Part shown: positions 3,573 through 57,557 of the stretch, piece after piece
Layout of the letters: every line of letters begins with the position of its first letter
Position numbering within the stretch: position 1 is the first letter of the stretch
Source: an uncultured Thermoanaerobaculia bacterium
GTDB lineage: Bacteria; Acidobacteriota; Thermoanaerobaculia; Thermoanaerobaculales; Sulfomarinibacteraceae
Assembly (NCBI GenBank): GCA_964423595.1
Contig: CAYRFI010000004.1
Span: 12,327-76,326, forward strand
Direction of reading: 5' to 3'
DNA: 64,000 bases
Translations under genes and position numbers: made by a program
The notes under the pieces: model-generated
Seen by the model: only the letters and a program-made list of their open reading frames with translations
What the model was told of the DNA's origin: nothing
Database searches by the model: none

Positions 3573-3658
3573 GTTAAGGGTAAAGAGTTAAGAGTTAAGC
3601 CCACCCATCCCACCGCCACTTTCTCTTCACCCTTAACCCTTTACTCTTCACTCTTGAC
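3573..3658. repeat. Inverted arrays of degenerate tandem heptamers (left GTTAAGG GTAAAGA GTTAAGA GTTAAGC; right TCTTCAC CCTTAAC CCTTTAC TCTTCAC TCTTGAC)
   Basis: Read directly. The left array is 3573-3600 and the right array is 3624-3658, with a 23-nt spacer. The units are reverse complements (consensus YCTTNAC). The element sits at the convergent junction of the ChbG and GH88/105 genes, and the right array encodes the last 5 codons and the stop of the GH88/105 gene. Confidence 0.8.
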
Positions 3659-4846
3659 CTCGCTAGCGAGCTTCAGCATCTCGCTGCCGGCAAGAAGGAA
3701 GGCGCCGGTGCCGTACTCCATGCTGTCCTCGGCGGTGACCGAGCGCGGGTCGTAGCCGATCTGCTGCACCCAACCGAGCCGTCCGTCCGGTTGGAGGGCC
3801 CAGATCAGACCCTCCCAACCCCGGTAGACTGCAAGCAAGAACGAATCGGCGTCCAGCACATCGTTGTTGACGCCCCACGCCAGCCCAAAGGTGAAAAAGC
3901 CGCTGCCGCTCGACTCCGGGATCGGAAACTCCTCTGGATCGAGGAGGCTCGACCGCCACAGCCCGTCGTCGCCCTGGACGGCGACGAGGGCCGCGGCCAT
4001 CTCGCGGAAGAGCTCAACGTAGCGCGGGCGATCCGGATAGTCGTCCGGCATGTGTTCGAGAACCAGCGCGAGGCTGGCGAACACCCAGCCATTGCCGCGC
4101 GACCAAAACACCTTTTGCCCATGCGTCGTCCGCGGCCCGGAGCCATTCTCCTGGATGACATACCGGCCATCGCGATACCAGAGGTGCTCCGCCGGATCAT
4201 AGAGGTAGTCGTAGGTCTGCCACCACATGCTGTTCATGAGGTCGAGGTACCTGAGGTCATGGGTCGCCTCGGCAATCAGAGCCATGGTCGGCGGCGCCAT
4301 GAAGAGGGCGTCGCACCACGACCAGTTGTCGTCCTCGTTCCACCCCACTTCAGGCCCAGGTCGCGGCTCCGCAATCATCTCGTCGAAATTGGCGACGATC
4401 GCGTCGATCATCCGCTTTTGGTGTTTGATGAGGAAGATCCTGGCATAGGTCTGGGCAATGCACTGGTCGTCTGCATGGCGCTGTCGCGGTCCCGGTTTCC
4501 AGTTGTTGCGATCCGAGATCTCCATCGCCGCATTCAGGTACTTCGGGTTACCGGTTGCCTCGTAGGCGGCCATCACTCCGGAGAAAAAGGCTCCGCGCAC
4601 CCATTCGGTATCGCTGACGTCCTGGAACCCCCCATCCGGTAACGGCGCCTTATAGACGATGTGGTCAATCTGCCAGTCGAACGCGCGCATCATCACGGTG
4701 TTGATGTACGAGCGGGAAAAGATCCGTTTTTCGCTTTTCACACCTTCCGCGGTTGTCTCCTCTGCAGGCGGGCGGTCGCAGCCAAGGGCCAGTGCGATGG
4801 CCAGCATTCCGAGAGCGAAACGGCCGACGTTCTTTGCTCGGTTCAT
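3641..4846 (-). CDS. GH88/GH105-family unsaturated glucuronyl / rhamnogalacturonyl hydrolase, lipoprotein
   Basis: Motifs WCDALFMAPP, FWSRGNGW, ESSGSGFF and YGTGAFLLAG fit the PF07470-type fold. The start is trimmed to MNRAKNVGRFALGMLAIALALGCD (lipobox LALGC) at 4846. The upstream 34 codons of the ORF are Arg/Gly-rich read-through. Confidence 0.8.
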   Translation of the reverse strand: MNRAKNVGRFALGMLAIALALGCDRPPAEETTAEGVKSEKRIFSRSYINTVMMRAFDWQIDHIVYKAPLPDGGFQDVSDTEWVRGAFFSGVMAAYEATGNPKYLNAAMEISDRNNWKPGPRQRHADDQCIAQTYARIFLIKHQKRMIDAIVANFDEMIAEPRPGPEVGWNEDDNWSWCDALFMAPPTMALIAEATHDLRYLDLMNSMWWQTYDYLYDPAEHLWYRDGRYVIQENGSGPRTTHGQKVFWSRGNGWVFASLALVLEHMPDDYPDRPRYVELFREMAAALVAVQGDDGLWRSSLLDPEEFPIPESSGSGFFTFGLAWGVNNDVLDADSFLLAVYRGWEGLIWALQPDGRLGWVQQIGYDPRSVTAEDSMEYGTGAFLLAGSEMLKLASEVKSEE

Positions 4847-4989
4847 CGAGCTTTCCCCTTTCGCACGCTCCACAGGATAACTCTTCGCGGCACCACCTAA
4901 CCCACACCTCGTCCGTGGCCGGGATCGTGCGATCATGGCGTCGAACATTGCGTCCCAACAACGACCTTTCGAAACAGGGGAGGCGGAGC

Positions 4990-5994
4990 ATGAACATCAC
5001 CAGCCGTTACACACCGGCTCCAGGTCGCTACGACTCGATGATCTACAACCGATGCGGCCGCAGCGGTCTCAAGCTGCCGGCAGTATCGCTCGGGCTGTGG
5101 CACAACTTCGGAGGCGTCGACTCCCTGGAGAACGCCCGCGCCATGCTGCGACGCGCCTTCGACCTGGGAATCACTCATTTCGACCTCGCCAACAACTACG
5201 GTCCACCCTACGGCTCGGCGGAGGCGACATTTGGACGGCTTTTCGCGCACGACTGGCGGCCGTTCCGCGACGAGCTGATCATCTCCTCCAAGGCCGGCTG
5301 GGACATGTGGCCCGGACCCTACGGCAATTGGGGCTCGCGCAAGTACCTGGTGGCGAGCCTCGACCAGAGCCTCGCCCGCACAGGGCTCGATTACGTCGAC
5401 ATCTTCTACCACCACCGCCCTGACCTCGACACCCCGCTCGAGGAGACGATGGGCGCGCTCGACTTCATCGTCCGTTCGGGGCGCGCGCTCTACGCCGGCA
5501 TCTCGATGTACCCGCCAGACCTCACGCGCAGAGCGGCCGAGATCCTGCGCTCGCTCGGGACCCCGTGTCTCATTCACCAGCCCAACTACAGCCTCTTCGA
5601 TCGCTGGATCGAGGGCGAGCTGCTCGACGTGCTCTCCGAGGAAGGCATCGGCTGCATCGTGTTTTCGCCCCTCGCCCAGGGTCTTCTCACCGACAGGTAC
5701 CTCGACGGTATCCCGGCAGGCTCGCGCGCTGCACGCGACGACAGCTACCTTTCAAGAGCCGAGGTGACCGACGAGGTCATGGCCACCGTCCGTCGGCTCA
5801 ACGAGGTGGCATCGGCACGTGGCCAGCGCATGGCCCAGCTTGCTGTAGCCTGGGTCCTCCGCCAGCCGGGCGTCACCTCCGCTCTGATCGGCGCGAGTCG
5901 GCCGTCCCAGATCGAGGACGCCGTCGCCGCCCTCGAACATCTCGACTTCACGGCGGACGAGCTCACCACCCTCGATCGGATCCTCGCCGGCTAA
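4990..5994 (+). CDS. yghZ: Aldo-keto reductase, YghZ/Gpr-like (L-glyceraldehyde-3-phosphate reductase family)
   Basis: Long collinear similarity to my recollection of E. coli YghZ: CGRSGLKLPAVSLGLWHNFG, AFDLGITHFDLANNYGPPYGSAE, ELIISSKAGWDMWPGPYG, SRKYL.ASLDQSL. Start is ATG 4990 after GGGGAGGCGGAG; the ORF-track start at 4753 is read-through. Confidence 0.8.
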   Translation: MNITSRYTPAPGRYDSMIYNRCGRSGLKLPAVSLGLWHNFGGVDSLENARAMLRRAFDLGITHFDLANNYGPPYGSAEATFGRLFAHDWRPFRDELIISSKAGWDMWPGPYGNWGSRKYLVASLDQSLARTGLDYVDIFYHHRPDLDTPLEETMGALDFIVRSGRALYAGISMYPPDLTRRAAEILRSLGTPCLIHQPNYSLFDRWIEGELLDVLSEEGIGCIVFSPLAQGLLTDRYLDGIPAGSRAARDDSYLSRAEVTDEVMATVRRLNEVASARGQRMAQLAVAWVLRQPGVTSALIGASRPSQIEDAVAALEHLDFTADELTTLDRILAG

Positions 5995-6172
5995 CCCGCA
6001 TATCTCACCGGGTTTCGTTGCGAGGGCGGCGAGGTGCCGTGCCCAGTGGGGTTTTCGACCCGAGGGGCGCGGAGCGCGTACTTGCAGTACGTCGAGCACC
6101 CCGAGGCGAGAAAACACCGTTGGGTGCGGTGCATCAGCGCTCGCAGCAGGAAGTTGGTGAGATATGCGGGCT
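5995..6172. repeat. Intergenic element bounded by a 15-nt perfect inverted repeat CCCGCATATCTCACC / GGTGAGATATGCGGG (REP/MITE-like)
   Basis: Copy A is at 5995-6009, immediately after the yghZ-like stop. Copy B is at 6156-6170 on the opposite strand, with extension to 6141-6172, about 15 nt downstream of the GH3 stop on the minus strand. A third copy is at 49958-49989. Confidence 0.75.
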
Positions 6173-6186
6173 AAGCTCGACGACAC

Positions 6187-8736
6187 TCACTCGCAGGGGA
6201 GGTCACCCTCGGCCGTCCCCTCCAGCCTGACATCGGCGAAACGCAGCGCGAGCGAGCCCTCGGTAGCGAGCAGGAACGGCGCCGTGATGTGGCTGAGATC
6301 TGCGCCGGAATCGCCGAAGTGACGCAGTCGGAGTTTCATCGTTTTCCATTCCCCGACGGGGCTTCGAGCCAGCGTTTCGGTGATGTCAACCCGGCCCTCG
6401 CAGCCCTCGCCGCACCGCATGGCCGCATAGACCGGCGCGCTCGGTGCCTCTTCCACCATCACGTCGAAGGCGAGCACCATGCAGTCTGAAGCCTCAGGAG
6501 TTAGATCCACCGCCGGCGCGGCTTCGAGATAGAGGATGGCGAGGTCGTACCCGGCCCAGCGGGCGGCGCGCGCGTCTTCCTGCAGCTCGCGATCGACCAC
6601 GGTCACGACCAGATTGTCGCGGTCCCAGGTCGAGGTGATTCCACCGACCGTCTTCACTGCCCAATTACGCTCGTCACCGACGTACAAACGCCACGGCGCC
6701 ACCGATCCGCCACGGAAGTAGACGGTGCGGCTCGTGTCCGGAATTGCTCCTCCAGGATCCTCCGGAAGATCGGCAAGGTCCGCGCTGTCGGCGTAGGTGA
6801 GTCCGAAGCCGTAGGCGAAGAGCGGATCGTAGCCTTCGTCTCCGAGATTGAGGGCCTCTTGCACCGCGGTCTTCGGCCACGAGTGGGCGAGCCGACCCTT
6901 GAAATCGTGATTGACGGCACCGTCGCCGGCGGCGAGGATCACCTCAGCCACCCCGTCCCCTTCTGAGCCCGGTAACCAAGCCGCCACGAATGCATCTGAG
7001 GCGTTGAGCTCAGGGTTGACCCACATCGGCCTGCCCGAAAGGAAGATCGAGACAACTGGGACTCCAGCAGCTTTCAATCGCTTCAACAACTCCAGATCGT
7101 CCGGTCGTGAAAAATCGTAGTCGAGGGTTTCGCGGTCACCCTGAAACTCTGCGTAAGGGTTCTCACCGAAGACAACGACAGCAACATCGGGCTTCGATCG
7201 GAACGAACCGTTCTCGGATAGGATGGCGGTGCCGCCGGCGCCTTCCACCACCGGCCTGATCCCATCCCAGATTGAAGATCCGCCCGGAAAGTCCTCGTTA
7301 CTGGTGTCGGTGCCCTGCCAGGTGAGGGTCCAACCGCCGCACTGTTTACCAATGTTGTCGGCGCCATCGCCGGCCACCAGCACCGTCTGCGCCCGTTCGA
7401 GCGGCAGCAGCCCGCCGTTGTTCTTGAGCAGGACCAGCGACTCGCGCACCGCCTGACGCGCCACCGCCCGGTGATCCGGCGAGCCGAGGCGATCGGTCTT
7501 TCCGGCCAGGGGCCGGCTCGACGGCTTGCCCTTGTCGAAGAGGCCCGCGCGCATCTTGACCCGGAGGATGCGACGCACCGCGTCATCGAGGCGTTCCATC
7601 GGGATCTCACCAGCTTCCACCTGATCGATGGTGTTCGATCGAAGCGCCTTCCAATCCTCGGGCGCCATGAACATATCGACGCCGGCGTTGAAGGCCGCCG
7701 GACAGCTCGAGTTGCTGCAGCCCCCCACCTCGCCGTGTCCGTTCCAGTCGCCGACCACAAACCCGTTGAATCCCATTCGCCCCTTCAGCACGTCGGTGAG
7801 AAGCCCCTTGTTGGCGTGCATCTTGAGCCCCTGCCAGGAGGAAAAAGACGCCATCACGGTCTGCACGCCAGCCTCGAGCGCGGAGAAGTAACCGGCGCCG
7901 TGGATGTCGCGCAGCTCGGCCTCGGTCGAGAGGTTGTTCCCGCGGTCGACGCCGTTCGCGGTACCGCCGTCGCCGAGGAAATGCTTGGCACAGGCGACCA
8001 CGTGATCTACACCCAGGAATGCCTCGCTTTTCGCATCTCCCTGAAGACCACTGATCATTGCGCCGGCATAAGCTCGGGCCACCTCCGGGTCCTCTGACCA
8101 GCTCTCGTAGGAACGTCCCCAACGGTCGTCACGGACCACCGCAACGGTGGGGCTGAAATCCCAGTCGAGGCCGGTAACAGCCATCTCGACCGCGGTCACC
8201 CGCCCGATCTCGTGGATCAGCTCCGGATTGCCGGTGGCGCCGAGACCGATGTTCTGCGGAAAGACCGTAGCACCGACGACGTTTGTATGGCCGTGAACTG
8301 CATCCGTTCCCCAGATCACCGGGATCGCAACACCACCGTCCGAAGTGTCCATCGATGCTTCCCAGAAGGCATCGGCCAGCGCCAGCCAGTCGCCGACCGA
8401 CGCCCACTTCTTGTCAAAGGGCTGCACACCGCCGCCGTTGAGCACCGAGCCCAACCGGTATTTCCGGACGTCCTTCGGCTCGAGGTGGCGGATCTCGCCC
8501 TCGACGACCTGTCCCACTTTGTCCTCGATCGACATGCGGGCAAGGAGGTCGTCGATCCGCCCCTCGATTTCGGGATCTATGGCGACCGGACTTTCCATCG
8601 CGGGCCACACCTCTGGATGAACAATCGGGGGTTCCACGCCCCCGGCATTCTCCACAGCTTCGAACGACTGTCCACAACCCGAAAGCACTATCACTCCGAA
8701 TCCAAGCCCAAGTGCGACAACCTCATTGAGAGTCAT
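6187..8736 (-). CDS. GH3 beta-glucosidase / exo-beta-glucanase (ExoP-like, with about 190-aa C-terminal extra domain), lipoprotein
   Basis: GH3 motifs LGSVLNGGG, VIWGTDAVHGH and GFVVGDWNG. The N-terminus MTLNEVVALGLGFGVIVLSGCG carries a lipobox. Confidence 0.85.
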   Translation of the reverse strand: MTLNEVVALGLGFGVIVLSGCGQSFEAVENAGGVEPPIVHPEVWPAMESPVAIDPEIEGRIDDLLARMSIEDKVGQVVEGEIRHLEPKDVRKYRLGSVLNGGGVQPFDKKWASVGDWLALADAFWEASMDTSDGGVAIPVIWGTDAVHGHTNVVGATVFPQNIGLGATGNPELIHEIGRVTAVEMAVTGLDWDFSPTVAVVRDDRWGRSYESWSEDPEVARAYAGAMISGLQGDAKSEAFLGVDHVVACAKHFLGDGGTANGVDRGNNLSTEAELRDIHGAGYFSALEAGVQTVMASFSSWQGLKMHANKGLLTDVLKGRMGFNGFVVGDWNGHGEVGGCSNSSCPAAFNAGVDMFMAPEDWKALRSNTIDQVEAGEIPMERLDDAVRRILRVKMRAGLFDKGKPSSRPLAGKTDRLGSPDHRAVARQAVRESLVLLKNNGGLLPLERAQTVLVAGDGADNIGKQCGGWTLTWQGTDTSNEDFPGGSSIWDGIRPVVEGAGGTAILSENGSFRSKPDVAVVVFGENPYAEFQGDRETLDYDFSRPDDLELLKRLKAAGVPVVSIFLSGRPMWVNPELNASDAFVAAWLPGSEGDGVAEVILAAGDGAVNHDFKGRLAHSWPKTAVQEALNLGDEGYDPLFAYGFGLTYADSADLADLPEDPGGAIPDTSRTVYFRGGSVAPWRLYVGDERNWAVKTVGGITSTWDRDNLVVTVVDRELQEDARAARWAGYDLAILYLEAAPAVDLTPEASDCMVLAFDVMVEEAPSAPVYAAMRCGEGCEGRVDITETLARSPVGEWKTMKLRLRHFGDSGADLSHITAPFLLATEGSLALRFADVRLEGTAEGDLPCE

Positions 8737-8793
8737 CCGGCCCCCCGCCTTCGATTACCGAAGATTCTAACCCGCAAAAAAATTCTCCGAGGG

Positions 8794-8822
8794 TTGACAA
8801 ATGATACGAATCGTATTATAAC
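8794..8822 (+). promoter_or_regulatory. Sigma70-type promoter (TTGACA-17 nt-TATAAC) with an embedded palindrome ATACGA-A-TCGTAT; putative PadR auto-operator
   Basis: TTGACA is at 8794-8799 and TATAAC at 8817-8822, with an exact 17-nt spacer. The palindrome at 8804-8816 lies inside the spacer, and a further TTCGTA half-site is at 8825-8830. This is a local AT-rich island 11 nt upstream of the padR-like ATG. Confidence 0.6.
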
Positions 8823-8832
8823 TATTCGTACT

Positions 8833-9390
8833 ATGGAGAATGACATCACCTTCTCGCCCCTTCGCCTTGCGATTCTCGGGTTGGTCGCGATGCACCCACA
8901 ATCCGGTTACGACCTGAGAAAGGTCTTCGATACAACACCGATGGGCCACTTCAGCAGCAGCCCGGGCGCCATCTACCCGGCCCTCAAGAGCCTCGAAAAA
9001 AAGGGGTGGATACGCGGAGAGCCCGACAAGACAGAATCTCTCCGCCCCCGCCTCGTCTATTCGATCACCGAGGATGGAGACAACATCCTCCGCTCCGAGC
9101 TCGAGAAACCGGTCACCCATGAAGACCTGATCTGGCACTTCGATCTGGTCATGCTCCGCTTCGCTTTCATCGATCGCATCGGAAACGAGCAGGCGGTGCG
9201 TTTTCTCGGGGAATTTCGCGCCGAGTCCGAGGCCTATCTCGATCACCTCGAGGAAATCAGGGTCCAGATGCGAGAACAGATGTCGCCATGCGGGCGGCTC
9301 GCCCTCGAGCACGGCATCCAGGCCTTCCGCGGCAACGCCCTGTGGGCCAAGAAATCAATTGCCGAGCTCTCCAAGCTCGCAAAGAAATGA
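8833..9390 (+). CDS. PadR-family transcriptional regulator
   Basis: LRLAILGLVAMHPQSGYDLRKVF...SPGAIYPALKSLEKKGWI is a PadR wHTH signature. The start is trimmed to ATG 8833; the ORF-track start at 8212 lies antisense within GH3. Confidence 0.8.
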   Translation: MENDITFSPLRLAILGLVAMHPQSGYDLRKVFDTTPMGHFSSSPGAIYPALKSLEKKGWIRGEPDKTESLRPRLVYSITEDGDNILRSELEKPVTHEDLIWHFDLVMLRFAFIDRIGNEQAVRFLGEFRAESEAYLDHLEEIRVQMREQMSPCGRLALEHGIQAFRGNALWAKKSIAELSKLAKK

Positions 9391-10283
9391 GGTTCGAAAT
9401 GTCTCATGAAGCGCAAAGCCCCATCATCAGCTGGATGTGGAAGATTCCAGCAATCGCCGCCGCCTACTTCATTGGAGTCATGATCAGCGGCGCCGCCATC
9501 ACCGCAGTCAAGATGCCGTGGCCGGTATTTCCCGGGTCGGCGAGCGAATCAGGAAATTTCATCCTCGAGCTGATCAGCTCCATATTCATGGCCGCCTGTC
9601 TCGCGCTGCTCGCCCGGGGGATCCGTGGATCACAGTTTTCGCGTTGGCTCATCCTCGCCGCCTTCACCTACGTCGCATTCGGTCTCAACAACCAGATCGA
9701 AGCGGCCATCTTCACGACCTACGGCGGCACCGCAACAATGCTCGTGTTTTTGATTCTGCCCTGTGCCTTCGGTGCCGCGGCAGCCGTTTGGCTCTTCAAA
9801 CCCGAGCGAGCAAACGCATCTCTTGAGTCCGTCATCACCACCCAACCCGTGTCCAGGTGGTGGTGGCGGGCGGTCGTCGTGTGGCTTGCGTTTCCGGTGA
9901 TCTACGTGTTCTTTGGAATGCTCGCCGCGCCGTTCGTGGTGCCCGTCTACGAGGCGCAGGACTTTGGTCTGACACTCCCCGGTTGGGGGACCATGCTCCC
10001 GGTGGCGCTGTGCAGAAGCGCGCTTTACCTCGCCGTCACAGTTCCGATACTCGTCACATGGGCGCGATCTCGGCGAAGCTTGTACTGGGCGCTTGCCGTA
10101 GGCTTTTTCGCCATGATGGGATTGATCGGACTCCTCAGCGTCACCTTCCTCCCGCCGGTTCTGCGAATCACCCACAGCATCGAGATCCTCGGCGACGCCC
10201 TGGTCTATGCGTGGCTCCTCTTGGCGTTGTTCGTGCCGAAGTCGAAGGTCGGGCGCGCAGAGCTGGTACCAAGTCATCAGTAA
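9387..10283 (+). CDS. Polytopic membrane protein of unknown function, co-transcribed with PadR
   Basis: About 8 hydrophobic segments. ATG 9387 overlaps the padR stop (ATGA); an alternative ATG is at 9399. Confidence 0.6.
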   Translation: MRFEMSHEAQSPIISWMWKIPAIAAAYFIGVMISGAAITAVKMPWPVFPGSASESGNFILELISSIFMAACLALLARGIRGSQFSRWLILAAFTYVAFGLNNQIEAAIFTTYGGTATMLVFLILPCAFGAAAAVWLFKPERANASLESVITTQPVSRWWWRAVVVWLAFPVIYVFFGMLAAPFVVPVYEAQDFGLTLPGWGTMLPVALCRSALYLAVTVPILVTWARSRRSLYWALAVGFFAMMGLIGLLSVTFLPPVLRITHSIEILGDALVYAWLLLALFVPKSKVGRAELVPSHQ

Positions 10284-10381
10284 CCAGTTCCCTCCGCGCA
10301 ACCCCTCGGGCTCTCAAACTGATCACTGGTTACTGAGTGGCTCGTCGGGACTGGTTACTCGGACGCGAGGGTGGTTACACC
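10278..10381. repeat. Dispersed TGGTTAC / GTAACCA motifs (1 inverted + 3 direct copies) at a convergent gene junction
   Basis: CAGTAACCAG is at 10278-10287 and contains the stop of the membrane-protein gene. TGGTTAC occurs at 10327-10333, 10352-10358 and 10372-10378; the last contains the stop of the PIG-L gene. The unit is the same as in the array at 33045-33131. Confidence 0.65.
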
Positions 10382-11232: not shown

Positions 11233-11318
11233 CCTTGATTCCCCTCAATAACCTCGGAGTCCTCCCTATATACACGCGAGAATCCGCCACTCCATCATAA
11301 CGTGAGTCGAGTTGTACT

Positions 11319-16747: not shown

Positions 16748-17827
16748 ATGAAGAGACGCATCGCATATTCAATTGTTATTTCGATGGTGTTGTTCTCGTG
16801 TTCAGTGGCAGGTGCGGGTGAGGCGGAGGAGGGGAGCGGGGACTGGTGGTACGTTCCGTACCCCGAGCCGTTCGACGCATCGAAGATCGAGACCACTCTG
16901 CAGTTCATCCACGTCGAGGGCAACCGCTTTGTCGACGAGGACGGCAACACGAGGATCTTTCAGGGGGTCAACATTTCCGATCCCGACAAGCTGGAAAAAA
17001 ACGGCTACTGGAGCAAGGCCCACTTCCAGGTCATCAAGGACTGGGGAGCGAACCTCGTCCGCGTGCCGGTTCACCCGGTCGCCTGGAAGGGACGCGGTGA
17101 GGCCGAGTACTTCAATCTCCTCGACCAGGCGGTGACCTGGGCCTCTGAGCTCGGTCTCTACCTCAACATCGAGTGGCACAGCATGGGCAATCTCGAAACC
17201 GAGGTCTTCCAGCACCCCATGCACTACACCACCCGGCAGGAGACCTACAACTTCTGGCGTGATATCTCGTTTCGCTACGCCGGCATCCCGGCGGTCGCGT
17301 TCTACGAGCTCTTCAACGAGCCCACCACCTACAACGGCCGACTCGGGCGGATCAGCTGGGCCGAGTGGAAGGTCATCGTCGAGCAGATGATCGGCATCAT
17401 CTTCGCCCACGACACCAGGGTCATCCCCCTGGTCGGGGGCTTCGACTGGGCCTACGAGCTGCGCAACGTTGGTGCAGATCCCATCGATTTCGAGGGCATC
17501 GGCTATGTCAGCCACCCTTACCCGATGAAGGCGCAGCAGCCGTGGGAGGTGAACTGGGAGAAGGATTTCGGCTATGTCGCCGACACCTACCCCCTGATGG
17601 CGGCCGAGATCGGCTTCATGGCCGCCGACCAGCCCGGCGCCCACATTCCGGTGATCGCGGACGAGGAGTACGGGCGGAGAATCCTGGCCTACTTCGAGAA
17701 GAAGGGGATCTCCTGGACCGCCTGGTGTTTCGACCCCGACTGGCCACCGCAGCTGATCTCCGATTGGGATTACACGCCGACGACGCAGGGAGCGTTTTTC
17801 AAGGCGTATATGTTAGGGGAGCAGTAG
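16748..17827 (+). CDS. GH5 family glycoside hydrolase (cellulase-type), secreted
   Basis: ANLVRVPVH; FYELFNEPT (acid/base NEP); LMAAEIGF (nucleophile Glu). Signal peptide MKRRIAYSIVISMVLFSCSVAGA. GAGGTGGAGG lies upstream. Confidence 0.8.
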   Translation: MKRRIAYSIVISMVLFSCSVAGAGEAEEGSGDWWYVPYPEPFDASKIETTLQFIHVEGNRFVDEDGNTRIFQGVNISDPDKLEKNGYWSKAHFQVIKDWGANLVRVPVHPVAWKGRGEAEYFNLLDQAVTWASELGLYLNIEWHSMGNLETEVFQHPMHYTTRQETYNFWRDISFRYAGIPAVAFYELFNEPTTYNGRLGRISWAEWKVIVEQMIGIIFAHDTRVIPLVGGFDWAYELRNVGADPIDFEGIGYVSHPYPMKAQQPWEVNWEKDFGYVADTYPLMAAEIGFMAADQPGAHIPVIADEEYGRRILAYFEKKGISWTAWCFDPDWPPQLISDWDYTPTTQGAFFKAYMLGEQ

Positions 17828-17886: not shown

Positions 17887-17975
17887 GGCTTGGGGCCTGC
17901 GACCTGAGGCTTGAGGTCGACAGCATCGATTTTATTGAGGCTCTTGAGCGATCTTCAAGCCCCAAGCCACAAGCC
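17887..17975. repeat. Inverted heptamer arrays (left GGCTTGG GGCCTGC GACCTGA GGCTTGA GGTCGAC; right TCAAGCC CCAAGCC ACAAGCC)
   Basis: The left array is 17887-17921 and the right array is 17955-17975. Additional same-sense half-units TTGAGGC TCTTGAG are at 17935-17948. The element lies between the GH5 stop (17827) and the symporter start (18024). TATAAT at 17986-17991 follows the element. Confidence 0.75.
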
Positions 17976-18023
17976 ATGCGACTCATATAATCTGACTCGA
18001 GAAATCAACATGCCGGGGGATTG

Positions 18024-19859
18024 ATGAGACAGTTGGGATTGACCGGCCTCGACCTGAGCATCATCGTCGTCTATCTGGTAGCGGTGACCGCCATCGGCTT
18101 TGCAATGCGACGCCGCGCCGCCAAGAGCGTGGAGTCCTACCTGCTCGGCGGCAAGGACATCCCCTGGTACATGCTGGGGCTGTCCAACGCCTCCGGGATG
18201 TTCGACATCTCGGGCACCATGTGGCTGGTCACCATCGGATTCGTTTACGGTTTGAAAAGCATCTGGCTGCCATGGCTGTGGCCGACCTTCAACCAGATCT
18301 TCCTTATGGTCTACCTGTCGGCGTGGCTCCGACGGTCGAACGTGACCACCGGCGCGCAGTGGATCGAGACCCGCTTTGGTACCGGGACAGGTGCCCGTCT
18401 GTCGCACACGGTGGTGGTGATCTTCGCGTTGATCGGCGGGCTCGGCTTCCTGGCCTACGGCTTCGTCGGCCTCGGCAAGTTCGTCGAGATCTTCCTCCCC
18501 TGGGAGGTCGTGCAGCCGCTTCTCGGGATCCACATCGCGCCCGAGTTCGTGCCTCACTTTTATGGCATCGTGTTCACCCTGGCGGCGGTCCTCTACACCA
18601 TTCTCGGCGGCATGCGCAGCATCGTGTTGGCCGACGTACTGCAGTTCACGATCATGACCATCTCGGCGGTAGTGGTTGCTGTGATCGCCATGACCGCGCT
18701 CGCCCACACACCGCTGGTCGTGCCCGACGGCTGGATGAGTCCGTGGTTCGGTTGGGAGCTCGACCTCGATTGGTCCGGCATCATCGCAGAGGTGAGCCAA
18801 AAGATCTCCTCGGACCAATTCTCGCTCTTCACGGTCTTTTTCATGATGATGGTTTTCAAGGGAATCCTCGTCAGCGCCGCCGGCCCGGCGCCCAACTACG
18901 ATATGCAGAAGATCCTCGCTACACGGTCGCCCCGCGAAGGGGCGCTGATGAGCGGCTTCGTGAGCCTCGTCCTGGCGCCGGCACGGTACCTGATGATCGC
19001 CGGATTCGTGGTTCTGGGGCTTCTGTTCTACGACCGGCTCGATCTGATCTCCGGAGGACAGCTCGACTTCGAACAGATTCTGCCGTCGGCCATCAACGAG
19101 TTCGTACCCGCGGGCTTTACCGGTGTCCTGCTTGCGGGCCTCGCCGCGGCCTTCGTCTCCACCTTCTCGGGGACCCTCAACGCGGCCCAGGCCTACGTGG
19201 TGAACGACCTCTACCACAAGTACATCGACCCCAAGGCCTCACACAAGCGCACGGTGATCGTCAACTACGCGAGTGGCTTACTCATTGTCGTCATCAGTAT
19301 CGTCCTCGGCTTATTCGCCAAGAACGTCAACAACATGCTGCAGTGGATCGTGTCGGCTCTGTGGGGAGCCTATCTCTCCTCCAACGTGCTCAAGTGGTAC
19401 TGGTGGCGGTTCAACGGCTACGGCTACTTCTGGGGCATGGTGGCGGGAATCATTCCGGCCCTCATCTTCCCGACCATCTGGTCCGAGATGCTGCCGCTCT
19501 ATTACTTCCCGCACCTGATGGGGATCTCGCTGGTCGGATGTATTCTCGGCACCTATCTGACCAAAGCGACCGACAGGGAAACCTTGAAGGCCTTTTACCG
19601 CTCGGTGAGGCCATGGGGATTCTGGGGGCCGATCCAACTCGAGGTCGAGGCCGAGGACCCGGATTTCAGGCGCAACACGAACTTCAAACGCGACATGGTC
19701 AACGTGGTGGTCGGCACGATCTGGCAGACGGCGCTGGTGGCGATGCCGATCTACTTCGTGCTCATGCGATGGACGCCGGTCGCCGTCACGGCGGCGATTG
19801 TGGTCGTGACGATGATCTTCCTCAAGAAGAACTGGTACGACAAGCTGGAGAGGGAATGA
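18024..19859 (+). CDS. Sodium:solute symporter (SSF family), first gene of the mannan operon
   Basis: Polytopic SSF-like sequence. ATG 18024 is preceded by GGGGGA. The stop overlaps the next start (ATGA). Confidence 0.8.
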   Translation: MRQLGLTGLDLSIIVVYLVAVTAIGFAMRRRAAKSVESYLLGGKDIPWYMLGLSNASGMFDISGTMWLVTIGFVYGLKSIWLPWLWPTFNQIFLMVYLSAWLRRSNVTTGAQWIETRFGTGTGARLSHTVVVIFALIGGLGFLAYGFVGLGKFVEIFLPWEVVQPLLGIHIAPEFVPHFYGIVFTLAAVLYTILGGMRSIVLADVLQFTIMTISAVVVAVIAMTALAHTPLVVPDGWMSPWFGWELDLDWSGIIAEVSQKISSDQFSLFTVFFMMMVFKGILVSAAGPAPNYDMQKILATRSPREGALMSGFVSLVLAPARYLMIAGFVVLGLLFYDRLDLISGGQLDFEQILPSAINEFVPAGFTGVLLAGLAAAFVSTFSGTLNAAQAYVVNDLYHKYIDPKASHKRTVIVNYASGLLIVVISIVLGLFAKNVNNMLQWIVSALWGAYLSSNVLKWYWWRFNGYGYFWGMVAGIIPALIFPTIWSEMLPLYYFPHLMGISLVGCILGTYLTKATDRETLKAFYRSVRPWGFWGPIQLEVEAEDPDFRRNTNFKRDMVNVVVGTIWQTALVAMPIYFVLMRWTPVAVTAAIVVVTMIFLKKNWYDKLERE

Positions 19860-21724: not shown

Positions 21725-21730
21725 ACGACG

Positions 21731-28299: not shown

Positions 28300-28333
28300 G
28301 GTTATGGTCCAGTGGGACCCTGGGCGTGTGGGA

Positions 28334-28361
28334 ATTCCTCATTCCTCATTCCTCATTTCAA
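28334..28361. repeat. Solo tandem heptamer array ATTCCTC x3 (+ATTTCAA)
   Basis: Read directly as ATTCCTC ATTCCTC ATTCCTC ATTTCAA. I saw no inverted partner nearby. A small hairpin GGTCC-AGTG-GGACC at 28306-28319 precedes it. The array contains the stop codon of the SDR remnant. Confidence 0.75.
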
Positions 28362-28480
28362 ATCGTCGGCGTCTCGCTGCCGCCGCAGACCGGAATGAAG
28401 GCACCGGTGATGAACTCCGCGAGTTCCGATGCGAGAAATGAGACCGCGTTGGCGACGTCCTGATCGGTCCCCCGAGATCG
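28358..28480 (-). pseudogene. Remnant of the C-terminus of a classical short-chain dehydrogenase (about the last 40 codons only)
   Basis: The translation ...GTDQDVANAVSFLASELAEFITGAFIPVCGGSETPTI* matches the conserved SDR C-terminal block (xEVAxxVxFLASDxAxxITGxxIxVDGG). There is no Rossmann N-terminus, because the RraA-like gene ends at 28503. Confidence 0.5.
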
Positions 28481-28502
28481 ATCTTCGTGACCATGGTCCA
28501 CC

Positions 28503-29345
28503 TCACTCGATCGACGGATCTTCGGGCAAGCCCAGCTCACGGTAGAGTTCGCGTCGTCCCGCCTTGTCGTTGTCGAGGATCGTCCGCGCATAGCGAGCCA
28601 CCTCTTCGGCCTGCGCCCGCGGTACCACCACCACGCCGTCGCCATCCGCAACGATGACGTCGCCTGGAATAACGAGTACGCCGCCGCAGACGATCGGCCG
28701 GTTGACTGACTCGATCTCGTTGCGGCCCGGCCGGATCCCGCGGCCGACGCCCCGAAAGTAGAGGGGCACACCCTCGGTCTCGATTTCGTCGGTGTCGCGG
28801 GCGGTAGCGTTGGTCACCACCCCGACCATCCCACGCTTCTTCCAGGCCAGGATGTTGTACGACCCGATCGAGCCCACGTCGACGGAGTTCGCGTCGTCGA
28901 GGACCAGCGCCGAGCCCGGACGAAGCAGGGCGTCAAAGGGCTCCGGGGAGATCTTCGAGTACCACTCCCCGACCCACTCGTCGAAGTCCCCGATCGACAT
29001 CTTTCCCGGGGAAGGACGGTTGGTCGGCACGTAGCGCGCGGTGACGGCGATACCGATGAAACGGTGGCGGTAGGTCTCGGAGTCCTTCCACAGAGGATGA
29101 ATTGCCGGGTCCATCAGCCCCGTGTTAGGGAGCCCGACGGCGGCGTCCATGCCGTCCGAGACGTCGGCGACCCGCAGCCCGTCAAAGAGCGTCAGCAGCT
29201 TCTGATCCTCCTCGGCCGTGAAGACCGGCGTCTTGATGAAGCTTTTGCCGGTTTGCAGTTCTTCGATCGCCGCACCATCCGGCGCCGTCTGGGCCGCTGA
29301 GGCGACCGCCATGAACACTGTCAAAACCGCGAAGATGGCTCGCAT
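28503..29345 (-). CDS. RraA/dimethylmenaquinone-methyltransferase-fold protein (HMG/CHA-aldolase-like) with signal peptide
   Basis: LRVADVSDGMDAVGL, VTNATARDTDEI and VIPGDVIVADGDGVVVVP. The start is trimmed to MRAIFAVLTVFMAVASAAQ (ATG 29345, GGAGGT upstream). Confidence 0.7.
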   Translation of the reverse strand: MRAIFAVLTVFMAVASAAQTAPDGAAIEELQTGKSFIKTPVFTAEEDQKLLTLFDGLRVADVSDGMDAAVGLPNTGLMDPAIHPLWKDSETYRHRFIGIAVTARYVPTNRPSPGKMSIGDFDEWVGEWYSKISPEPFDALLRPGSALVLDDANSVDVGSIGSYNILAWKKRGMVGVVTNATARDTDEIETEGVPLYFRGVGRGIRPGRNEIESVNRPIVCGGVLVIPGDVIVADGDGVVVVPRAQAEEVARYARTILDNDKAGRRELYRELGLPEDPSIE

Positions 29346-33041: not shown

Positions 33042-33044
33042 TGA

Positions 33045-33131
33045 GTGACCAGTAACCAGTACCCAGAACCGCCCACGCCCCCCGGGATATTGAATCCTCA
33101 AACTGATTACTGGTTACTGGTTACTGGCTTC
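33045..33131. repeat. Inverted heptamer arrays (left GTGACCA GTAACCA GTACCCA GAACC..; right TGATTAC TGGTTAC TGGTTAC TGGCTTC)
   Basis: The left array is 33045-33070, starting 4 nt after the GH94 stop. The right array is 33104-33131 and contains the stop and last codons of the lipoprotein gene. The spacer is 33 nt. This is a convergent junction. Confidence 0.8.
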
Positions 33132-37390: not shown

Positions 37391-37620
37391 TCCCGAGTCC
37401 GAGTCCGCGCCCGAATTCCGAACATGAACCACCAAGACACCAAGTACACCAAGAAAGCACGAAGGACTTCCACCCAGTCGCTTCCTCGCTGATCGGATCG
37501 CCTTGGCCAACGAAATCAAGAAATTCCTGATTGATCGCCGCCCGGCATTCCGGAAACAAAGGATTTCCCTGGTGTCCTTGGTGCTTTGGTGGTGAAAATT
37601 CGCGCGAACCGGGCATTTGG
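37391..37620. repeat. Long composite imperfect inverted repeat (CACCAAG-unit arrays and CCGAGT-type hexamers) in the GH2-MFS intercistronic gap
   Basis: CACCAAG occurs at 37430, 37438 and 37447, with CACGAAG at 37458. On the other arm, CCTGGTG is at 37568, CTTGGTG at 37577 and CTTTGGTG at 37584. The outer arms (CCGAGT CCGAGT CCGCGC CCGAAT at 37393-37416 versus ATTCGCGCGAACCGGG at 37598-37613) are partially complementary. Confidence 0.7.
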
Positions 37621-48649: not shown

Positions 48650-48652
48650 TCG

Positions 48653-49124: not shown

Positions 49125-49958
49125 ATGCGTCAGGTCATCATCGCAATCGTTTTCGTTGTGGTCGCTGCAGCCCCTGGCGGAGCGGTGGAGTTTCTCGGCG
49201 TCGAGCTGTGCGCGGATCCGGTCGACACCGGTGTCATCTTGCCCGCGGAATCCCCGCTGTCTTTGGAGAGCGTCGAGGTAGGCCAGCACGGGGGGTTGGT
49301 GATGCTCCTCCACTCGAAGAAGGGCGCCGTCCTCGAGCAGGTCGATGATCTAATGGCGTCCTTCACCGGCAGCCGCGGCACAGGTGACGACCGCAAGCTC
49401 GAGTGGACGAGCGACGAGATCACCGCCTTCGCCCAGGTCATCAAGAAGGACTATGTCGCCCTTGCCGTCACCGCAACCACAGACTGCTCGGTCGAACCCG
49501 AAGCCGTTGCGGAGGCGGCGACCGTCGAAAGCGACGAGAGCCCTGAGGTCGAGGCAACCTTGGACACCTTCAATAGAGAGGCGGTCGCGGCTGCCGCAGC
49601 CGCCGGCGCAGCGACCGCGACTGAAGAGCCGACCGTGGTTGAGGAGCCGACCGAGGACGAATCGCCGGCCGAGGATTTGGACTTCGCGCTCAAGGGACGC
49701 CTCAAACACTCAGCCGCGGGGGACGACTGGGTCGACGTTATGGGCATCGTCGTCAACAACTCCGGTGCCTCGTACGCTGTCGCCAGCTTCGACCTCAGTC
49801 TCTACGATGGCGGCGGCGAGCTCATCTGCGTCGACACGATTTCAGTCAACCAGTTGCGAGAGGGGCAGGAGCGCGCCTTCCGCGGCGCCATCCGCTGCGC
49901 CGATTACGTTGCAGACGAGGTCGCGAGCTGGAAGCTCCAGTTCGCCGGCGGGCACTAG
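49125..49958 (+). CDS. Secreted protein of unknown function with an acidic Ala/Glu/Pro/Thr-rich linker
   Basis: Signal peptide MRQVIIAIVFVVVAAAPGGAVE, with GGGAGGA upstream of ATG 49125. I recognise no catalytic motif. Confidence 0.55.
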   Translation: MRQVIIAIVFVVVAAAPGGAVEFLGVELCADPVDTGVILPAESPLSLESVEVGQHGGLVMLLHSKKGAVLEQVDDLMASFTGSRGTGDDRKLEWTSDEITAFAQVIKKDYVALAVTATTDCSVEPEAVAEAATVESDESPEVEATLDTFNREAVAAAAAAGAATATEEPTVVEEPTEDESPAEDLDFALKGRLKHSAAGDDWVDVMGIVVNNSGASYAVASFDLSLYDGGGELICVDTISVNQLREGQERAFRGAIRCADYVADEVASWKLQFAGGH

Positions 49959-49989
49959 CCCGCATATCTCACCAACTATCTGCTGCGGC
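49958..49989 (+). repeat. Third copy of the CCCGCATATCTCACC repeat (29 of 32 nt identical to the reverse complement of 6141-6172)
   Basis: AGCCCGCATATCTCACCAACTATCTGCTGCGG compares with AGCCCGCATATCTCACCAACTTCCTGCTGCGA. It begins inside the stop codon of the preceding gene. Confidence 0.75.
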
Positions 49990-49997
49990 CGGAATTG

Positions 49998-51506: not shown

Positions 51507-51510
51507 GCCC

Positions 51511-51987: not shown

Positions 51988-52408
51988 GGGTTGCTCCGTT
52001 TGGGCCTCTCAGAAAGCCGCCGGTAGTCATGTCGTGGCCGGATAACCGTGTCGGCGGGGCAATAAATGCCAGTCCGCACTCTCAGCATACCTTCCCGAGG
52101 GAAAAACCGTCTCGGTGCTCACGTCAAACAACGGTCAAAGCGCCGCCGGTACTCCATGCGTGGTGCCTGCGGAGGGGCATGGCGCCGGATGAGGGGGCTG
52201 CTGAGAGCGAATTCGATCACGGCGAGAGGCAGCTGCTGTTGCCGCCTGACGAAAATCCGCCCGTTGCGGGCACCGATGGTTGGCACTATCTTGTCAGAAG
52301 GGCACACCCGGATCGGTCGTGACCGTGGGACGAATAGGCGAATTCGAGCTTGAGAGGGCCTGAGGTGGAGTGCGTCACGCCGCCGGCCGCTGAAAGTTGG
52401 GGTGAGTT

Positions 52409-55709: not shown

Positions 55710-55831
55710 TTCGCCCCGCTGCGGCCGGATCCCAGGCTGAAAAGGCAGGGCGGGTGGTGGACAGCTTACGGCCACCCGCTGATTCCGACGTGAGCTCGCG
55801 TGCACAGCACGCGAGCAACCCTAGCGACGAA

Positions 55832-55914
55832 TGCCGGAGGAGGGGATCGAACCCTCACGGGATTACTCCCAGGGGATTTTAAGTCCCCAGCGTCTGCCAT
55901 TCCGCCACTCCGGC
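55832..55914 (-). tRNA. tRNA-Leu (anticodon UAA), 83 nt, long variable arm, CCA not encoded
   Basis: Hand-folded GCCGGAG-TG-GCG-GAATGGCAGA-CGC-T-GGGGA-CTTAAAA-TCCCC-TGGGAGTAATCCCGT-GAGGG-TTCGATC-CCCTC-CTCCGGC-A. All four stems pair, and the T-loop TTCGATC is present. Confidence 0.9.
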
Positions 55915-55936
55915 AGGAGACACAGCCATCATAGCC

Positions 55937-55971
55937 GGAAATCTGAATTCGGAATTCGGAATTCGGAGTGC
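55937..55971. repeat. Tandem heptamer array GGAAATC TGAATTC GGAATTC GGAATTC GGAGTGC
   Basis: Read directly. It lies between tRNA-Leu and the FAD-oxidoreductase start. The unit differs by 1 nt from the arrays at 57385-57557. Confidence 0.8.
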
Positions 55972-56003
55972 CGCCCACCCACCCGTGTGCTACAACTTCC
56001 TCG

Positions 56004-57386
56004 ATGACTGCGCAGAACGCAGAAGTCGTGATCTGCGGAGCCGGGATCGCGGGGATCTCGACAGCCTGGCGGCTGGCGGTGAAGCACGGAACTAGAAACG
56101 TCGTCCTGGTGGACTCGCGGCCGCCGATGACGCTGACCTCGGACAAGTCGACCGAGGCCTACCGCAACTGGTGGCCGGGGCCCGATGACGCGATGGTGCG
56201 GCTGATGAACCGCTCGATCGATCTCCTCGAAGAGATGGCGGAAGCGAGCGACAACCGTTTTTTGATGAACCGGCGTGGCTATCTCTACGCCACCGCCGAT
56301 CCGGAGCGAGCCGACGCGATGCACGCTGCGGGAGTACTCGCCTCCAGCTACGGAGCTGGCCCGTTGCGGGTCCACTCCGGAGGGGCGGGCGGCCCCGATT
56401 ACCTGCCAACACCGGCGGAGGGCTGGAAGGATCAACCCGACGGAGCGGATCTGATTCTCGGTGAGGGTTTACTCCGAAAGACTTTCCCCTTCCTCTCTCA
56501 GGAAACAGTGGCGGTGCTGCACGCCCGCCGCTGCGGCTGGTTCTCGGGCCAGCAGCTCGGCATGCTGCAACTCGAAGAAGCTCGGGCGGCCGGCGTCGAG
56601 GTGATCGAGGGCCGCGTCGAGTGGATTGAAACTACCGGCGGCCGCGTGTCGTCGGTCCAGATCGGCACCGGCAACGAAATCGTCTCCGTTGCTACGCCCC
56701 AGTTCGTGGTCGCCGCCGGGCCGATGCTACGAGAGGTCGGGGCCCTGCTCGGCCTCGAGCTGCCGGTCTTCTCCGAGCTTCACCTCAAGATGTCTCTCGA
56801 GGACCAGCTCGGCGTGGTGCCCCGTGACGCGCCTCTCTTGATCTGGGAGGATCCGCAGCGCCTCGGTTGGAGTGACGAGGAACGCGAGTTCGTGGCCGAG
56901 CTGGCGGACGGTGAGCTGTTGCTCGGCGAGATGCCTCCGGGAGTCCACGCGCGAATCGAGGGCGGGAGGGAAAGCCGCTACCTGCTCATCCTGTGGCCCT
57001 ACCATTTGGATCCGGTTGCGGAGAACTTCCCCCTGCCGATACCGGATCACTACGCCGAGATCTGTGTGCGCGGAATCTCGACCATGATCCCCGGGCTCGG
57101 CGCCTATGTGGAGCGGATGCCCAAACCGTGGATCGACGGCGGCTACTACACCAAGACGAAGGACAACCGCCCGCTCGCCGGTCCGCTGCCGATCGACGGG
57201 GCATTCGTTCATGGTGCGTTGTCGGGTTACGGGCTGATGGCCTCGGCGGCGACGGCGGAGATGGTCGCGCTGCACATCACCCAGGGGCAGTTGCCGGACT
57301 ACGCCGGTGCGTTCCTCCCAGCGCGGTTCGATGATCCGGAGTACCTCGCCTTGATCGAGGGATGGGATGACACCACACAGTTGTGA
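56004..57386 (+). CDS. FAD-dependent oxidoreductase (DAO/glycine-oxidase-like family)
   Basis: VVICGAGIAGISTAWRL (GxGxxG dinucleotide fold). The C-terminus is GALSGYGLMASAATAEMVA. The start is trimmed to ATG 56004. Confidence 0.7.
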   Translation: MTAQNAEVVICGAGIAGISTAWRLAVKHGTRNVVLVDSRPPMTLTSDKSTEAYRNWWPGPDDAMVRLMNRSIDLLEEMAEASDNRFLMNRRGYLYATADPERADAMHAAGVLASSYGAGPLRVHSGGAGGPDYLPTPAEGWKDQPDGADLILGEGLLRKTFPFLSQETVAVLHARRCGWFSGQQLGMLQLEEARAAGVEVIEGRVEWIETTGGRVSSVQIGTGNEIVSVATPQFVVAAGPMLREVGALLGLELPVFSELHLKMSLEDQLGVVPRDAPLLIWEDPQRLGWSDEEREFVAELADGELLLGEMPPGVHARIEGGRESRYLLILWPYHLDPVAENFPLPIPDHYAEICVRGISTMIPGLGAYVERMPKPWIDGGYYTKTKDNRPLAGPLPIDGAFVHGALSGYGLMASAATAEMVALHITQGQLPDYAGAFLPARFDDPEYLALIEGWDDTTQL

Positions 57387-57557
57387 TTTCGAATTTCGGA
57401 TTTCGTATTTCGGATTTACCCACCCACCCCTTCCAGTTACGCAGGAGGACGAGTCAGGCGCGGTCTTCGAACACAGTCGGGAACTGAAAGTGTAAAAGGA
57501 GACCGCCCGCGTGAGCCGAGCAGAAAATTCGAAATCCGAATTTCGAAATCCGAAATC
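57385..57557. repeat. Inverted heptamer arrays (left GATTTCG AATTTCG GATTTCG TATTTCG GATTTAC; right units GAAATCC / GAATTTC x5)
   Basis: The left array is 57385-57419 and starts inside the stop codon of the oxidoreductase gene. The right array is 57524-57557 and ends in the EF-G stop codon. The spacer is about 104 nt. This is a convergent junction. Confidence 0.8.

Follow-up and report, generated by a model that had tools for sequence, protein, structure and literature searches.

Why should the gene junctions of a sediment bacterium carry tandem repeats of seven nucleotides, often with an inverted partner across the same gap? The question is raised by a stretch of 64,000 nt (the window; contig CAYRFI010000004.1, ~6% non-coding) from an uncultured Thermoanaerobaculia bacterium, in which a reading of the letters alone (the sequence-only reading) had listed eight intergenic loci with a tandem 7-nt unit. 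The host family is Ca. Sulfomarinibacteraceae (Acidobacteriota, Thermoanaerobaculia) of marine sediment; the EF-G encoded here is 92-93% identical to those of metagenome-assembled genomes (MAGs) of Ca. Sulfomarinibacter / Ca. Sulfomarinibacteraceae, and the window also encodes polysaccharide-degradation enzymes, TonB-dependent receptors and a sulfatase. The arrays are heptanucleotide microsatellites, a known repeat class, in a new phylum. The reading favoured here, with a probability of roughly 0.45, is that they are hypervariable, slippage-born microsatellites at gene 3' ends, whose largely complementary arms build long 3'-end hairpins similar to those of repetitive extragenic palindromic (REP) sequences and of STRRs, repetitive sequences that are short and tandemly repeated.

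The period-7 excess is far beyond what composition predicts. A self-match scan of the window (at least three copies, at least 85% match), run alongside Tandem Repeats Finder, returned nine arrays of period 7, two of period 6 and none of periods 5 and 8-12. The intergenic set, 4.8 kb including 25-nt margins, held eight period-7 arrays, where 200 dinucleotide-preserving shuffles gave 0.025 on average (0.13 when the whole window was shuffled), and no arrays of periods 5, 6 and 8-10. Tandem Repeats Finder placed period-7 arrays at 3573-3599, 3625-3659, 17956-17976, 28334-28357, 33044-33070, 33102-33127, 55936-55967, 57385-57417 and 57525-57557, and called 37430-37454 period 8. The earlier observation is thus confirmed, with eight to nine period-7 arrays in the window, locus 2 having only dispersed copies rather than a tandem array and locus 6 a period of 7-8. 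Apart from these two exceptions, the defining traits of an intergenic heptanucleotide simple sequence repeat (SSR) class, namely tandem 7-nt units in at least three copies, a period-7 excess, a non-coding bias and variation in length and unit, are all present. The window arrays are non-coding or overlap last codons only; copy numbers range from 3 to 7 (median 4.6), and a mean GC content of 42% against 63% in the background agrees with the earlier remark that the units are AT-richer than their surroundings.

The same excess extends through the family. Across 80 EF-G neighbourhoods, one genome per species, the period-7 density in the family is 28.7 arrays per 100 kb versus 0-5 for other periods. 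Other Acidobacteriota, including Vicinamibacteria and some Thermoanaerobaculaceae, carry 5-14 period-7 arrays per 100 kb with a patchy distribution, and a Desulfobacterota-like outgroup carries about one.

The arrays are concentrated at gene 3' ends. The 329 kb of family DNA examined hold 84 arrays, 78 of them outside coding sequence; gene calls there came from a crude codon-usage caller, and the 'coding' arrays mostly lie in over-extended open reading frames (ORFs), at positions where other genomes have intergenic DNA. Arrays per kb of gap in this DNA number 3.8 in convergent, 1.6 in tandem and 0.34 in divergent gaps. [quoted passage not shown] Such family-wide counts derive mostly from orthologous EF-G and FAD-oxidoreductase neighbourhoods, and are pseudo-replicated and inflated by orthology. 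The loci of the window, which are independent of one another, have the same gene-end pattern, and five of its seven convergent gaps contain heptamer units. The junctions that are convergent number five, instead of the four counted earlier (3548/3641, 10283/10375, 28299/28358, 33041/33121 and 57386/57557). The stops listed at 3641, 10375, 28358, 33121, 57384-6 and 57557 do lie within or adjoin units, and a further one, at 10281-10283, had been missed. Flanking genes are housekeeping or carbohydrate-metabolism genes and the arrays lie past their stops, which does not fit SSRs of phase variation. A three-frame stop trap was considered and rejected, with stops in the sense orientation of 24 of 61 stop-proximal arrays versus 19 of 61 in antisense.

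Paired arrays are predicted to fold into long hairpins, as the sequence-only reading had proposed, with z-scores of -4.8 to -6.6 at loci 1, 5, 6 and 8. The arrays supply the outer stem and, when both are present, C-rich and G-rich boxes supply a GC-rich inner stem. Five loci of the window have five different units, and close to each unit lies the reverse complement of that unit. The reverse-complement partners claimed for six loci are clear at loci 1, 5, 6 and 8, weak at locus 3 and dispersed at locus 2, and no partner was found for the arrays at 28334 and 55937, described as solo. In the family, 26 of 42 adjacent arrays are inverted-complementary, compared with a null of 23% inverted and 24% direct that is inflated by shared unit families. 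Judged from sequence alone, the arms may be kept matched either through selection for pairing or through hairpin template switching.

The modules also have a consistent order. From the stop codon onward, the layout comprises an array of 3-7 units, a C-rich box, a loop of 15-300 nt, a G-rich box and the complementary array, and it recurs in 15 sequences; each arm, read inward on its own strand, has the array first and the C-box second. The C-rich box approximates CCCACCCRCCC (an example of a C-box / G-box sequence is GGGAGGGCGGGTGGG) and stands past the array in 27 of 128 cases and before it in 6 of 128, over a background of 0.8% per 25-nt window. C-box enrichment in the 64,000 nt alone is not significant (3 matches vs 1.3 expected), the link with arrays being clear only family-wide. 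Stop-proximal arrays carry more G than C (459 vs 278) and more T than A on the sense strand, and the dominant units are lineage-specific (AATTCGG, AATTAGG, ATTTCGG and similar). Of the 17 strict G-quadruplex (G4) motifs in 415 kb of relatives, 16 have an array no more than 15 nt away; the window has none. The C/G boxes may work as a GC-rich inner stem, as a G4/i-motif or in some other way.

Some further details of the boxes and their surroundings were recorded. C-boxes of the window lie at 3600-3614, 33069-33082, 55971-55984 and 57419-57430, and examples in relatives, whose compared sequences are labelled with L-numbers (L001, L009 and so on), lie at 12122-12136 of L071 and 4807-4821 of L084. 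Their G-rich complements stand 5' of the partner arrays, and in relatives many of the boxes are perfect G3N1G3N1G3N1G3 motifs. A sigma-54-type promoter consensus, TGGCAC-N5-TTGCA, comes within ~10 nt after the distal array in L008 (~3403-3430), L011 (~3307-3335), L012, L034, L058, L003 and L004, all representing one conserved module.

Loci 1, 5 and 8 are the fullest examples of the layout in the window, all on the + strand. At locus 1, the left array (3573..3599, GTTAAGR x3.9) begins 24 nt past the stop of a YdjC-family gene (3546-3548) and is followed immediately 3' by the C-rich box CCCACCCATCCCACC (3600..3614). The right array (3619..3659, CTTNACY x5, also called as period 21 by Tandem Repeats Finder) is the reverse complement of the left one and includes the stop (3641-3643) and final codons of the GH88 gene. 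The hairpin at 3569-3663 has a predicted energy of -30.7 kcal/mol (z -4.76), with a 29-nt partner that is 83% complementary. At locus 5, the left array (33044..33070, AGTAACC x3.9) begins 2 nt past the GH94 stop, the C-rich box CCGCCCACGCCCCC occupies 33069..33082, and the right array (33101..33131, TGGTTAC x4.4) includes the stop (33121-3) of a convergent gene of 387 aa; the hairpin reaches -38 kcal/mol (z -6.09), with a 23-nt partner that is 87% complementary. At locus 8, the left array (57385..57417, GATTTCG x4.7, also period 14 in Tandem Repeats Finder) overlaps the stop of the FAD-oxidoreductase gene (57384-6) and precedes the C-rich box CCCACCCACCCC (57419..57430), and the right array (57525..57557, CGAAATY x4.7) abuts the EF-G stop (57557-9). 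The two arrays form an outer stem of 33 nt, 85% complementary, in a fold of -68.4 kcal/mol (z -5.05). Directly past the EF-G-proximal array, on the EF-G sense strand, lies a weak terminator-like hairpin plus UCUCCUUUUA (57503..57523, - strand), a position matching that of the terminator hairpin past the array in 15 EF-G orthologues.

Loci 2, 3 and 6 depart from this pattern to different degrees. Locus 2 is a degenerate module without assigned strand (10277..10378), in which GTAACCA / TGGTTAC units occur as dispersed copies of 12-16 nt at 10277-88, 10325-36, 10347-59 and 10371-78; the stops of both flanking genes (10281-3 and 10375-7) fall inside units, and the fold is weak (z -1.7). Loci 2 and 5 are paralogous, with 72% identity over ~95 nt including non-array sequence and the common stretch CTCAAACTGATYACTGGTTAC. 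Locus 3, in a tandem (+ +) gap, pairs a degenerate GGCTTGR-like left array (17887..17916, + strand) with a right array of CAAGCCN x3.3 (17955..17977, + strand), and its pairing is weak (21 nt, 76%; z -2.1). Locus 6 is a long hairpin (37419..37602, - strand) in the tandem (- -) gap from the GH2 stop (37625) to an MFS gene. A 38-nt stem of 76% complementarity is built from its two arms, at 37430-37454 (CACCAAG-type, period 7-8) and at 37571-37594 (CTTGGTG-type), in a fold of -87 kcal/mol (z -6.64).

The two solo arrays stand in different contexts. Locus 4 (28332..28360, - strand) reads stop TGA, (AATGAGG)x3 and AATTCCCACACGCCC on the - strand, which is the stop-array-C-box layout for an adh_short-like ORF ending at 28358. 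In L163, an array with another unit, AATTCGG, stands at the orthologous position. Locus 7 (55936..55971, + strand, GGAATTC x4.6-4.9) lies in a divergent region upstream of tRNA-Leu(TAA) (55831-55915, - strand), at 22 nt from the tRNA's 5' end, and is followed by the C-rich box CCGCCCACCCACCC (55971..55984, + strand). An array upstream of this tRNA gene is found in at least eight relatives (e.g. L011 14547, L058 14721). A TATGAT -10-like hexamer occurs between the array and the tRNA gene, and the context of this array may be promoter- or UP-element-like. Two genes of the window are irregular: the adh_short-like ORF ending in array 4 (28358-28771) has 137 aa and matches the domain in its C-terminal part only, compared with 255 aa in relatives, and a GH5-like gene is split across two overlapping frames, 18021-19859 and 18221-21724. 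Both may reflect frameshifts, pseudogenes or assembly indels.

The junction past EF-G shows how arrays and terminators are combined. In 19 of 19 genomes an array begins at the EF-G stop and lies between the stop and a downstream hairpin, with units that include AATTAGG, AATTCGG, AATCAGG, ATTTCGA, GTTTTGA and others. In 15 of the 19, a canonical terminator hairpin with a T-rich tail stands directly past the array, e.g. CCGCCCTCCC-loop-GGGAGGGCGG-TTTTTT. At family gene ends, canonical terminators were found at 24 of 335, mostly those of EF-G, and arrays at 76 of 335. In terminator scans of the window, none of the sites was built by the arrays and terminator-like sites were not enriched, and a scan at the Rfam gathering threshold returned nothing but the tRNA. 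Past the array stems no U-tract was found on either strand, the 3' arms being A-rich in sense orientation; the array stems are therefore not canonical terminators, and the proposal that they work as bidirectional ones is not supported in the canonical sense. Next to EF-G the arrays make up the spacer upstream of the separate GC-rich hairpin and T-tract, and at other sites they form or lengthen hairpins.

Comparison of close relatives reveals turnover at these junctions. L009 and L097 are 98.3% identical in the flanks at EF-G and have near-identical terminator hairpins, and from stop to terminator one genome has (AATTAGG)n and its counterpart (ATTTCGA)n, in arrays of equal length (28 nt). L031 and L099 (97.7% identical) differ by ~120 nt, the paired module being complete in one, where its counterpart has a solo array that is fused to the stop codon. 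L085 and L088 show copy numbers of 3 vs 4 and 3 vs 5, and the whole module of locus 6 is kept in L162 and L163, the latter with one unit fewer. Unit-number variation at orthologous junctions, anticipated as a sign of slippage, is thus present together with changes of unit; differing units between genomes with ~98% identical flanks point to slippage-driven turnover. Arrays can also be lost or exchanged. The window is without the CAAGCCC array that relatives carry near EF-G, L164 has a REP-like palindrome (16760-16800) at the junction of locus 6, and loci 4 and 5 are not conserved in most relatives of the GH94 region, where plain GC hairpins or other palindromic repeats are found. That REP-like palindromes or GC hairpins replace arrays at equivalent junctions suggests, at the level of sequence, that 3'-end hairpin types are interchangeable. 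These alignments indicate that arrays turn over far faster than their flanks, with position and approximate length able to persist for long. Within-species variation was also sought: the sole other record of the organism found (L001) is 100% identical, exact-protein look-ups with the GH94 and GH88 ORFs gave no match, and the top match in a metagenome scan was only 88% identical.

In the favoured reading, slipped-strand mispairing next to a GC-rich hairpin or G4-prone boxes would create and homogenise the arrays, and the arms would be kept complementary by selection for pairing or by intra-hairpin template switching. The resulting hairpins would act at the RNA level like those of REPs and bacterial interspersed mosaic elements (BIMEs) or of STRRs, giving transcript 3' ends a spacer and a longer stem, and there they would protect upstream mRNA and insulate convergent or neighbouring units without being U-tract terminators. 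Several observations weigh against it, in addition to the pseudo-replication of the family counts. The function of the arrays is entirely inferred. Two loci (4 and 7) are solo, and locus 7 lies in the promoter region of a tRNA gene instead of at a gene 3' end. Some orthologous pairs are non-complementary (L012 709/776, L034 661/747, L071 2960/3150), and relatives carry just 0-1 arrays per 22 kb in the GH94-region neighbourhood. Stem mismatches, in counts too small and pseudo-replicated to be oriented by gene, show no excess of G.U over A.C (25 vs 36, with 81 others), and therefore no signature of selection at the RNA level. Long persistence at one site is also expected of a fast neutral microsatellite cycle.

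According to the main rival, the arrays are a neutral mutational by-product, generated by replication stalling at GC-rich hairpin or G4-prone boxes at gene ends, 7-nt slippage of the nascent strand and quasipalindrome template switching from arm to arm, and filling any unconstrained spacer from a stop codon to the following constrained element. Extreme turnover relative to the flanks, variable copy number, the clustering of strict G4 motifs at arrays, the lack of a wobble signature, the several non-complementary pairs, the absence of arrays at orthologous junctions of close relatives and the loss of one site in the window lineage are all in its favour, and polymerase slippage is the published hypothesis for heptamer excess, as PMC4692102 reports it in citing Mrazek 2007. 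Mutation alone agrees less well with an array density per base that is ~10 times lower in divergent than in convergent gaps, the narrow range of copy numbers, the array past EF-G in every genome compared despite replacement of its unit, and the consistent orientation with a G- and T-biased sense strand and the array before the C-box; we regard this explanation as somewhat unlikely. That the paired arrays themselves are bidirectional Rho-independent terminators is a good deal less probable. Their stable hairpins at convergent gene ends would suit the task, and something else than the few canonical terminators must end many transcripts, but the missing U-tracts, the A-rich 3' arms, the negative scans and the separate canonical terminator downstream of the EF-G array all speak against it, as do stems of 25-38 bp with loops of 15-300 nt, which are unlike intrinsic terminators.

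A similarly low probability is given to the arrays being bound, as cis-acting sites, by a lineage-specific reader of a 7-nt register, such as a cold-shock-domain protein, another single-strand RNA or DNA binder or a nucleoid-associated protein, with array and C-box together making an oriented 3'-end signal of the 'stop-array-C-box' form. Heptamer repeats are bound by CspB-type proteins with one protein per unit, according to the discussion in PMC4679880, and the limited, lineage-specific unit repertoire, the fixed orientation relative to the gene, the patchy phylogenetic distribution, the existence of solo arrays and the array kept upstream of the tRNA gene would all agree with such a factor. 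Against it, at least six unrelated units (GTTAAGA, GTAACCA, GGCTTGR, CACCAAG, GGAATTC-type and ATTCCTC) occur in the 64-kb window, the unit can be swapped between 98%-identical genomes while the array is kept, and no candidate factor was identified. It is very improbable that the modules are copies of a non-autonomous mobile element, of the kind of a miniature inverted-repeat transposable element (MITE) or a REP-derived REPIN, with terminal inverted repeats built of the heptamers. The paralogy of loci 2 and 5 across the whole module, the presence or absence of a whole module between 97.7%-identical genomes and other REP/MITE-like elements in the same niches would be explained by mobility; units differ between loci, however, and with the arrays masked an all-against-all BLAST of modules within genomes gave a single 20-nt hit. 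That masked modules share essentially no sequence argues against a MITE or REPIN. When examined as MITEs, which have a conserved interior, terminal inverted repeats and a target-site duplication, the modules had unrelated loops and no evident duplications, and no transposase was seen beside arrays in a Y1_Tnp scan of the window that was not exhaustive. An artefact of assembly or sequencing is hardly credible. Short repeats can in principle confuse assemblers, and nothing else was found for it; arrays of 21-50 nt are far shorter than reads, and arrays stand at orthologous positions in dozens of independently assembled MAGs and metagenome contigs of different projects, including contigs of 0.15-4.5 Mb. 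Recurring in independent assemblies of relatives, they are therefore not an assembly artefact, a possibility that the sequence-only reading had itself raised.

Among known systems, the GGGAATC heptamer repeats of Xanthomonas (with GGGGAYT in Nostoc) are, together with the cyanobacterial STRRs, the closest precedents (Rehm et al. 2015, PMC4692102). In the high-GC Xanthomonas there are ~185 repeats per genome, typically of ~4 copies, 89-93% of them intergenic, at a mean of 28 nt from the upstream ORF and under-represented between divergent genes; each genome has 70-75 sites with convergent inverted pairs that can form stem-loops, and the same intergenic sites are used across species with varying length and sequence, the repeats being capable of forming G4/i-motif structures (PMC4692102). 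The arrays described here share the proximity to the upstream ORF, the depletion in divergent gaps and the frequent convergent inverted pairs. Inverted GGGAATC arrays near upstream ORFs being known from high-GC Xanthomonas (PMC4692102), a GC-rich background therefore has a precedent. The differences lie in the units: Xanthomonas has one dominant unit whose G-tract gives the G4, whereas here units are many and mostly contain GG at most, only CAAGCCC-type arrays having a tract of three or more, and the G4/i-motif-capable tracts stand in a separate C/G box beside the array. Unlike in Xanthomonas, the arrays here very often touch or include the stop codon, and the phylum is Acidobacteriota. Many unit families, the separate C/G box and frequent fusion to the stop codon are thus the local peculiarities.

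The cyanobacterial STRRs share with these arrays the organisation as intergenic, hairpin-forming 7-bp tandem repeats of several unit families. They occur in AT-rich heterocystous cyanobacteria with consensus units of their own, and we know of no description of a C-box/G-box layout or of stop-codon abutment among them. For STRR hairpins, e.g. between hupS and hupL, an influence on the stability of transcripts or on translational coupling has been proposed (PMC2670836). The present arrays are not STRRs in the strict sense, as the host is an acidobacterium and the units differ; the kind is the same and the family is not. Naming STRRs as the closest precedent was accordingly right in kind and incomplete, since heptamer excess in many bacteria and the Xanthomonas GGGAATC repeats had already been published (PMC4692102). 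According to the account of Mrazek 2007 in PMC4692102, period 7 is over-represented among SSRs of 5-11 nt, mostly in intergenic DNA, and polymerase slippage was proposed as the cause. To judge by that account, this is a general statistical observation.

REPs and BIMEs, which form hairpins of this kind too, occupy the same niche, namely 3' ends and convergent and intercistronic gaps. Upstream mRNA is shielded by REP hairpins against 3' exonucleases. REPs come as near-identical copies of one 20-40-nt palindrome, which REP-associated tyrosine transposases (RAYTs) mobilise, whereas here the unit changes from locus to locus, tandem repeats make up the stems and the loops are unrelated. Near-identical copies of the REP/BIME or REPIN type are not seen, with loci 2 and 5, whose modules are similar, as the exception. 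In Beggiatoaceae, cyanobacteria and Bacteroidetes, the TAACTGA direct repeats (MacGregor 2015, PMC4679880) consist of 2-6 copies of a single unit with a patchy distribution, nearly always direct and just upstream of start codons, which suggests a role in translation initiation (PMC4679880). Both are intergenic, tandem and patchy; TAACTGA repeats adjoin start codons, and the arrays here adjoin stop codons. A literature search on Acidobacteria and heptanucleotide repeats found no paper.

Other repeat elements occur in the intergenic DNA of the window and its relatives. A near-perfect hairpin of ~190 nt (5994-6187, -119.9 kcal/mol) fills a convergent gap of the window and has the terminal inverted repeats AGCCCGCATATCTCACC / GGTGAGATATGCGGGCT, the same 17-mer being present in a second convergent gap (49957-49977); it looks like a member of a MITE/REP-like family with no relation to the heptamers. 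Intergenic DNA of L006, L011, L012, L033 (past EF-G) and L084-L088 contains a REP-like repeat, GTCATYCCGASCGAGGGAG..GCGA.CGAG.GGAGRRATC, and GTCATYCCGASCGAGGGAG is also the repeat that occupies the junction of locus 6 in L164 (16760-16800). At the epimerase / adh_short junction of L162-L164 (e.g. L164 6990-7120), which is orthologous to locus 4, stand a palindromic family CTGTCGCCCCCTYCAGGGGCT ... AGCCCCTGAAGRGGGCGACAG and GGGGCTCACGCCCC hairpins. The one Y1_Tnp gene seen, in L165 (IS200/RAYT-like, 324 aa; 8341-9315), has a repeat of its own, CCGGTGCCAGGTATCACAACCTCGCAAC, with two copies downstream and an inverted one upstream. This repeat is unrelated to the heptamers, and the whole looks like a RAYT-REP arrangement.

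Intergenic heptamers have been known since the cyanobacterial STRR work, and the phenomenon is much wider than cyanobacteria and Xanthomonas. As the arrays overlap stops and last codons, gene-end calling and strain-level variant calling in such MAGs can be affected. The EF-G array, always present, with its unit freely replaced, its orientation fixed and its link to C/G boxes tight, separates 'array needed' from 'sequence needed', and the comparative system makes neutral slippage, RNA hairpins and factor binding testable. A rather improbable extension is that 'stop codon, heptamer array, C-rich box' constitutes a lineage-specific signal for 3'-end formation or RNA processing, in which the register would matter and the sequence would not, and which a factor acting in trans would recognise, or which would be read by way of a G4/i-motif-type structure. 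If true, these Acidobacteriota would use this signal instead of canonical U-tract terminators, of which their gene ends have few (24/335 vs 76/335 for arrays).

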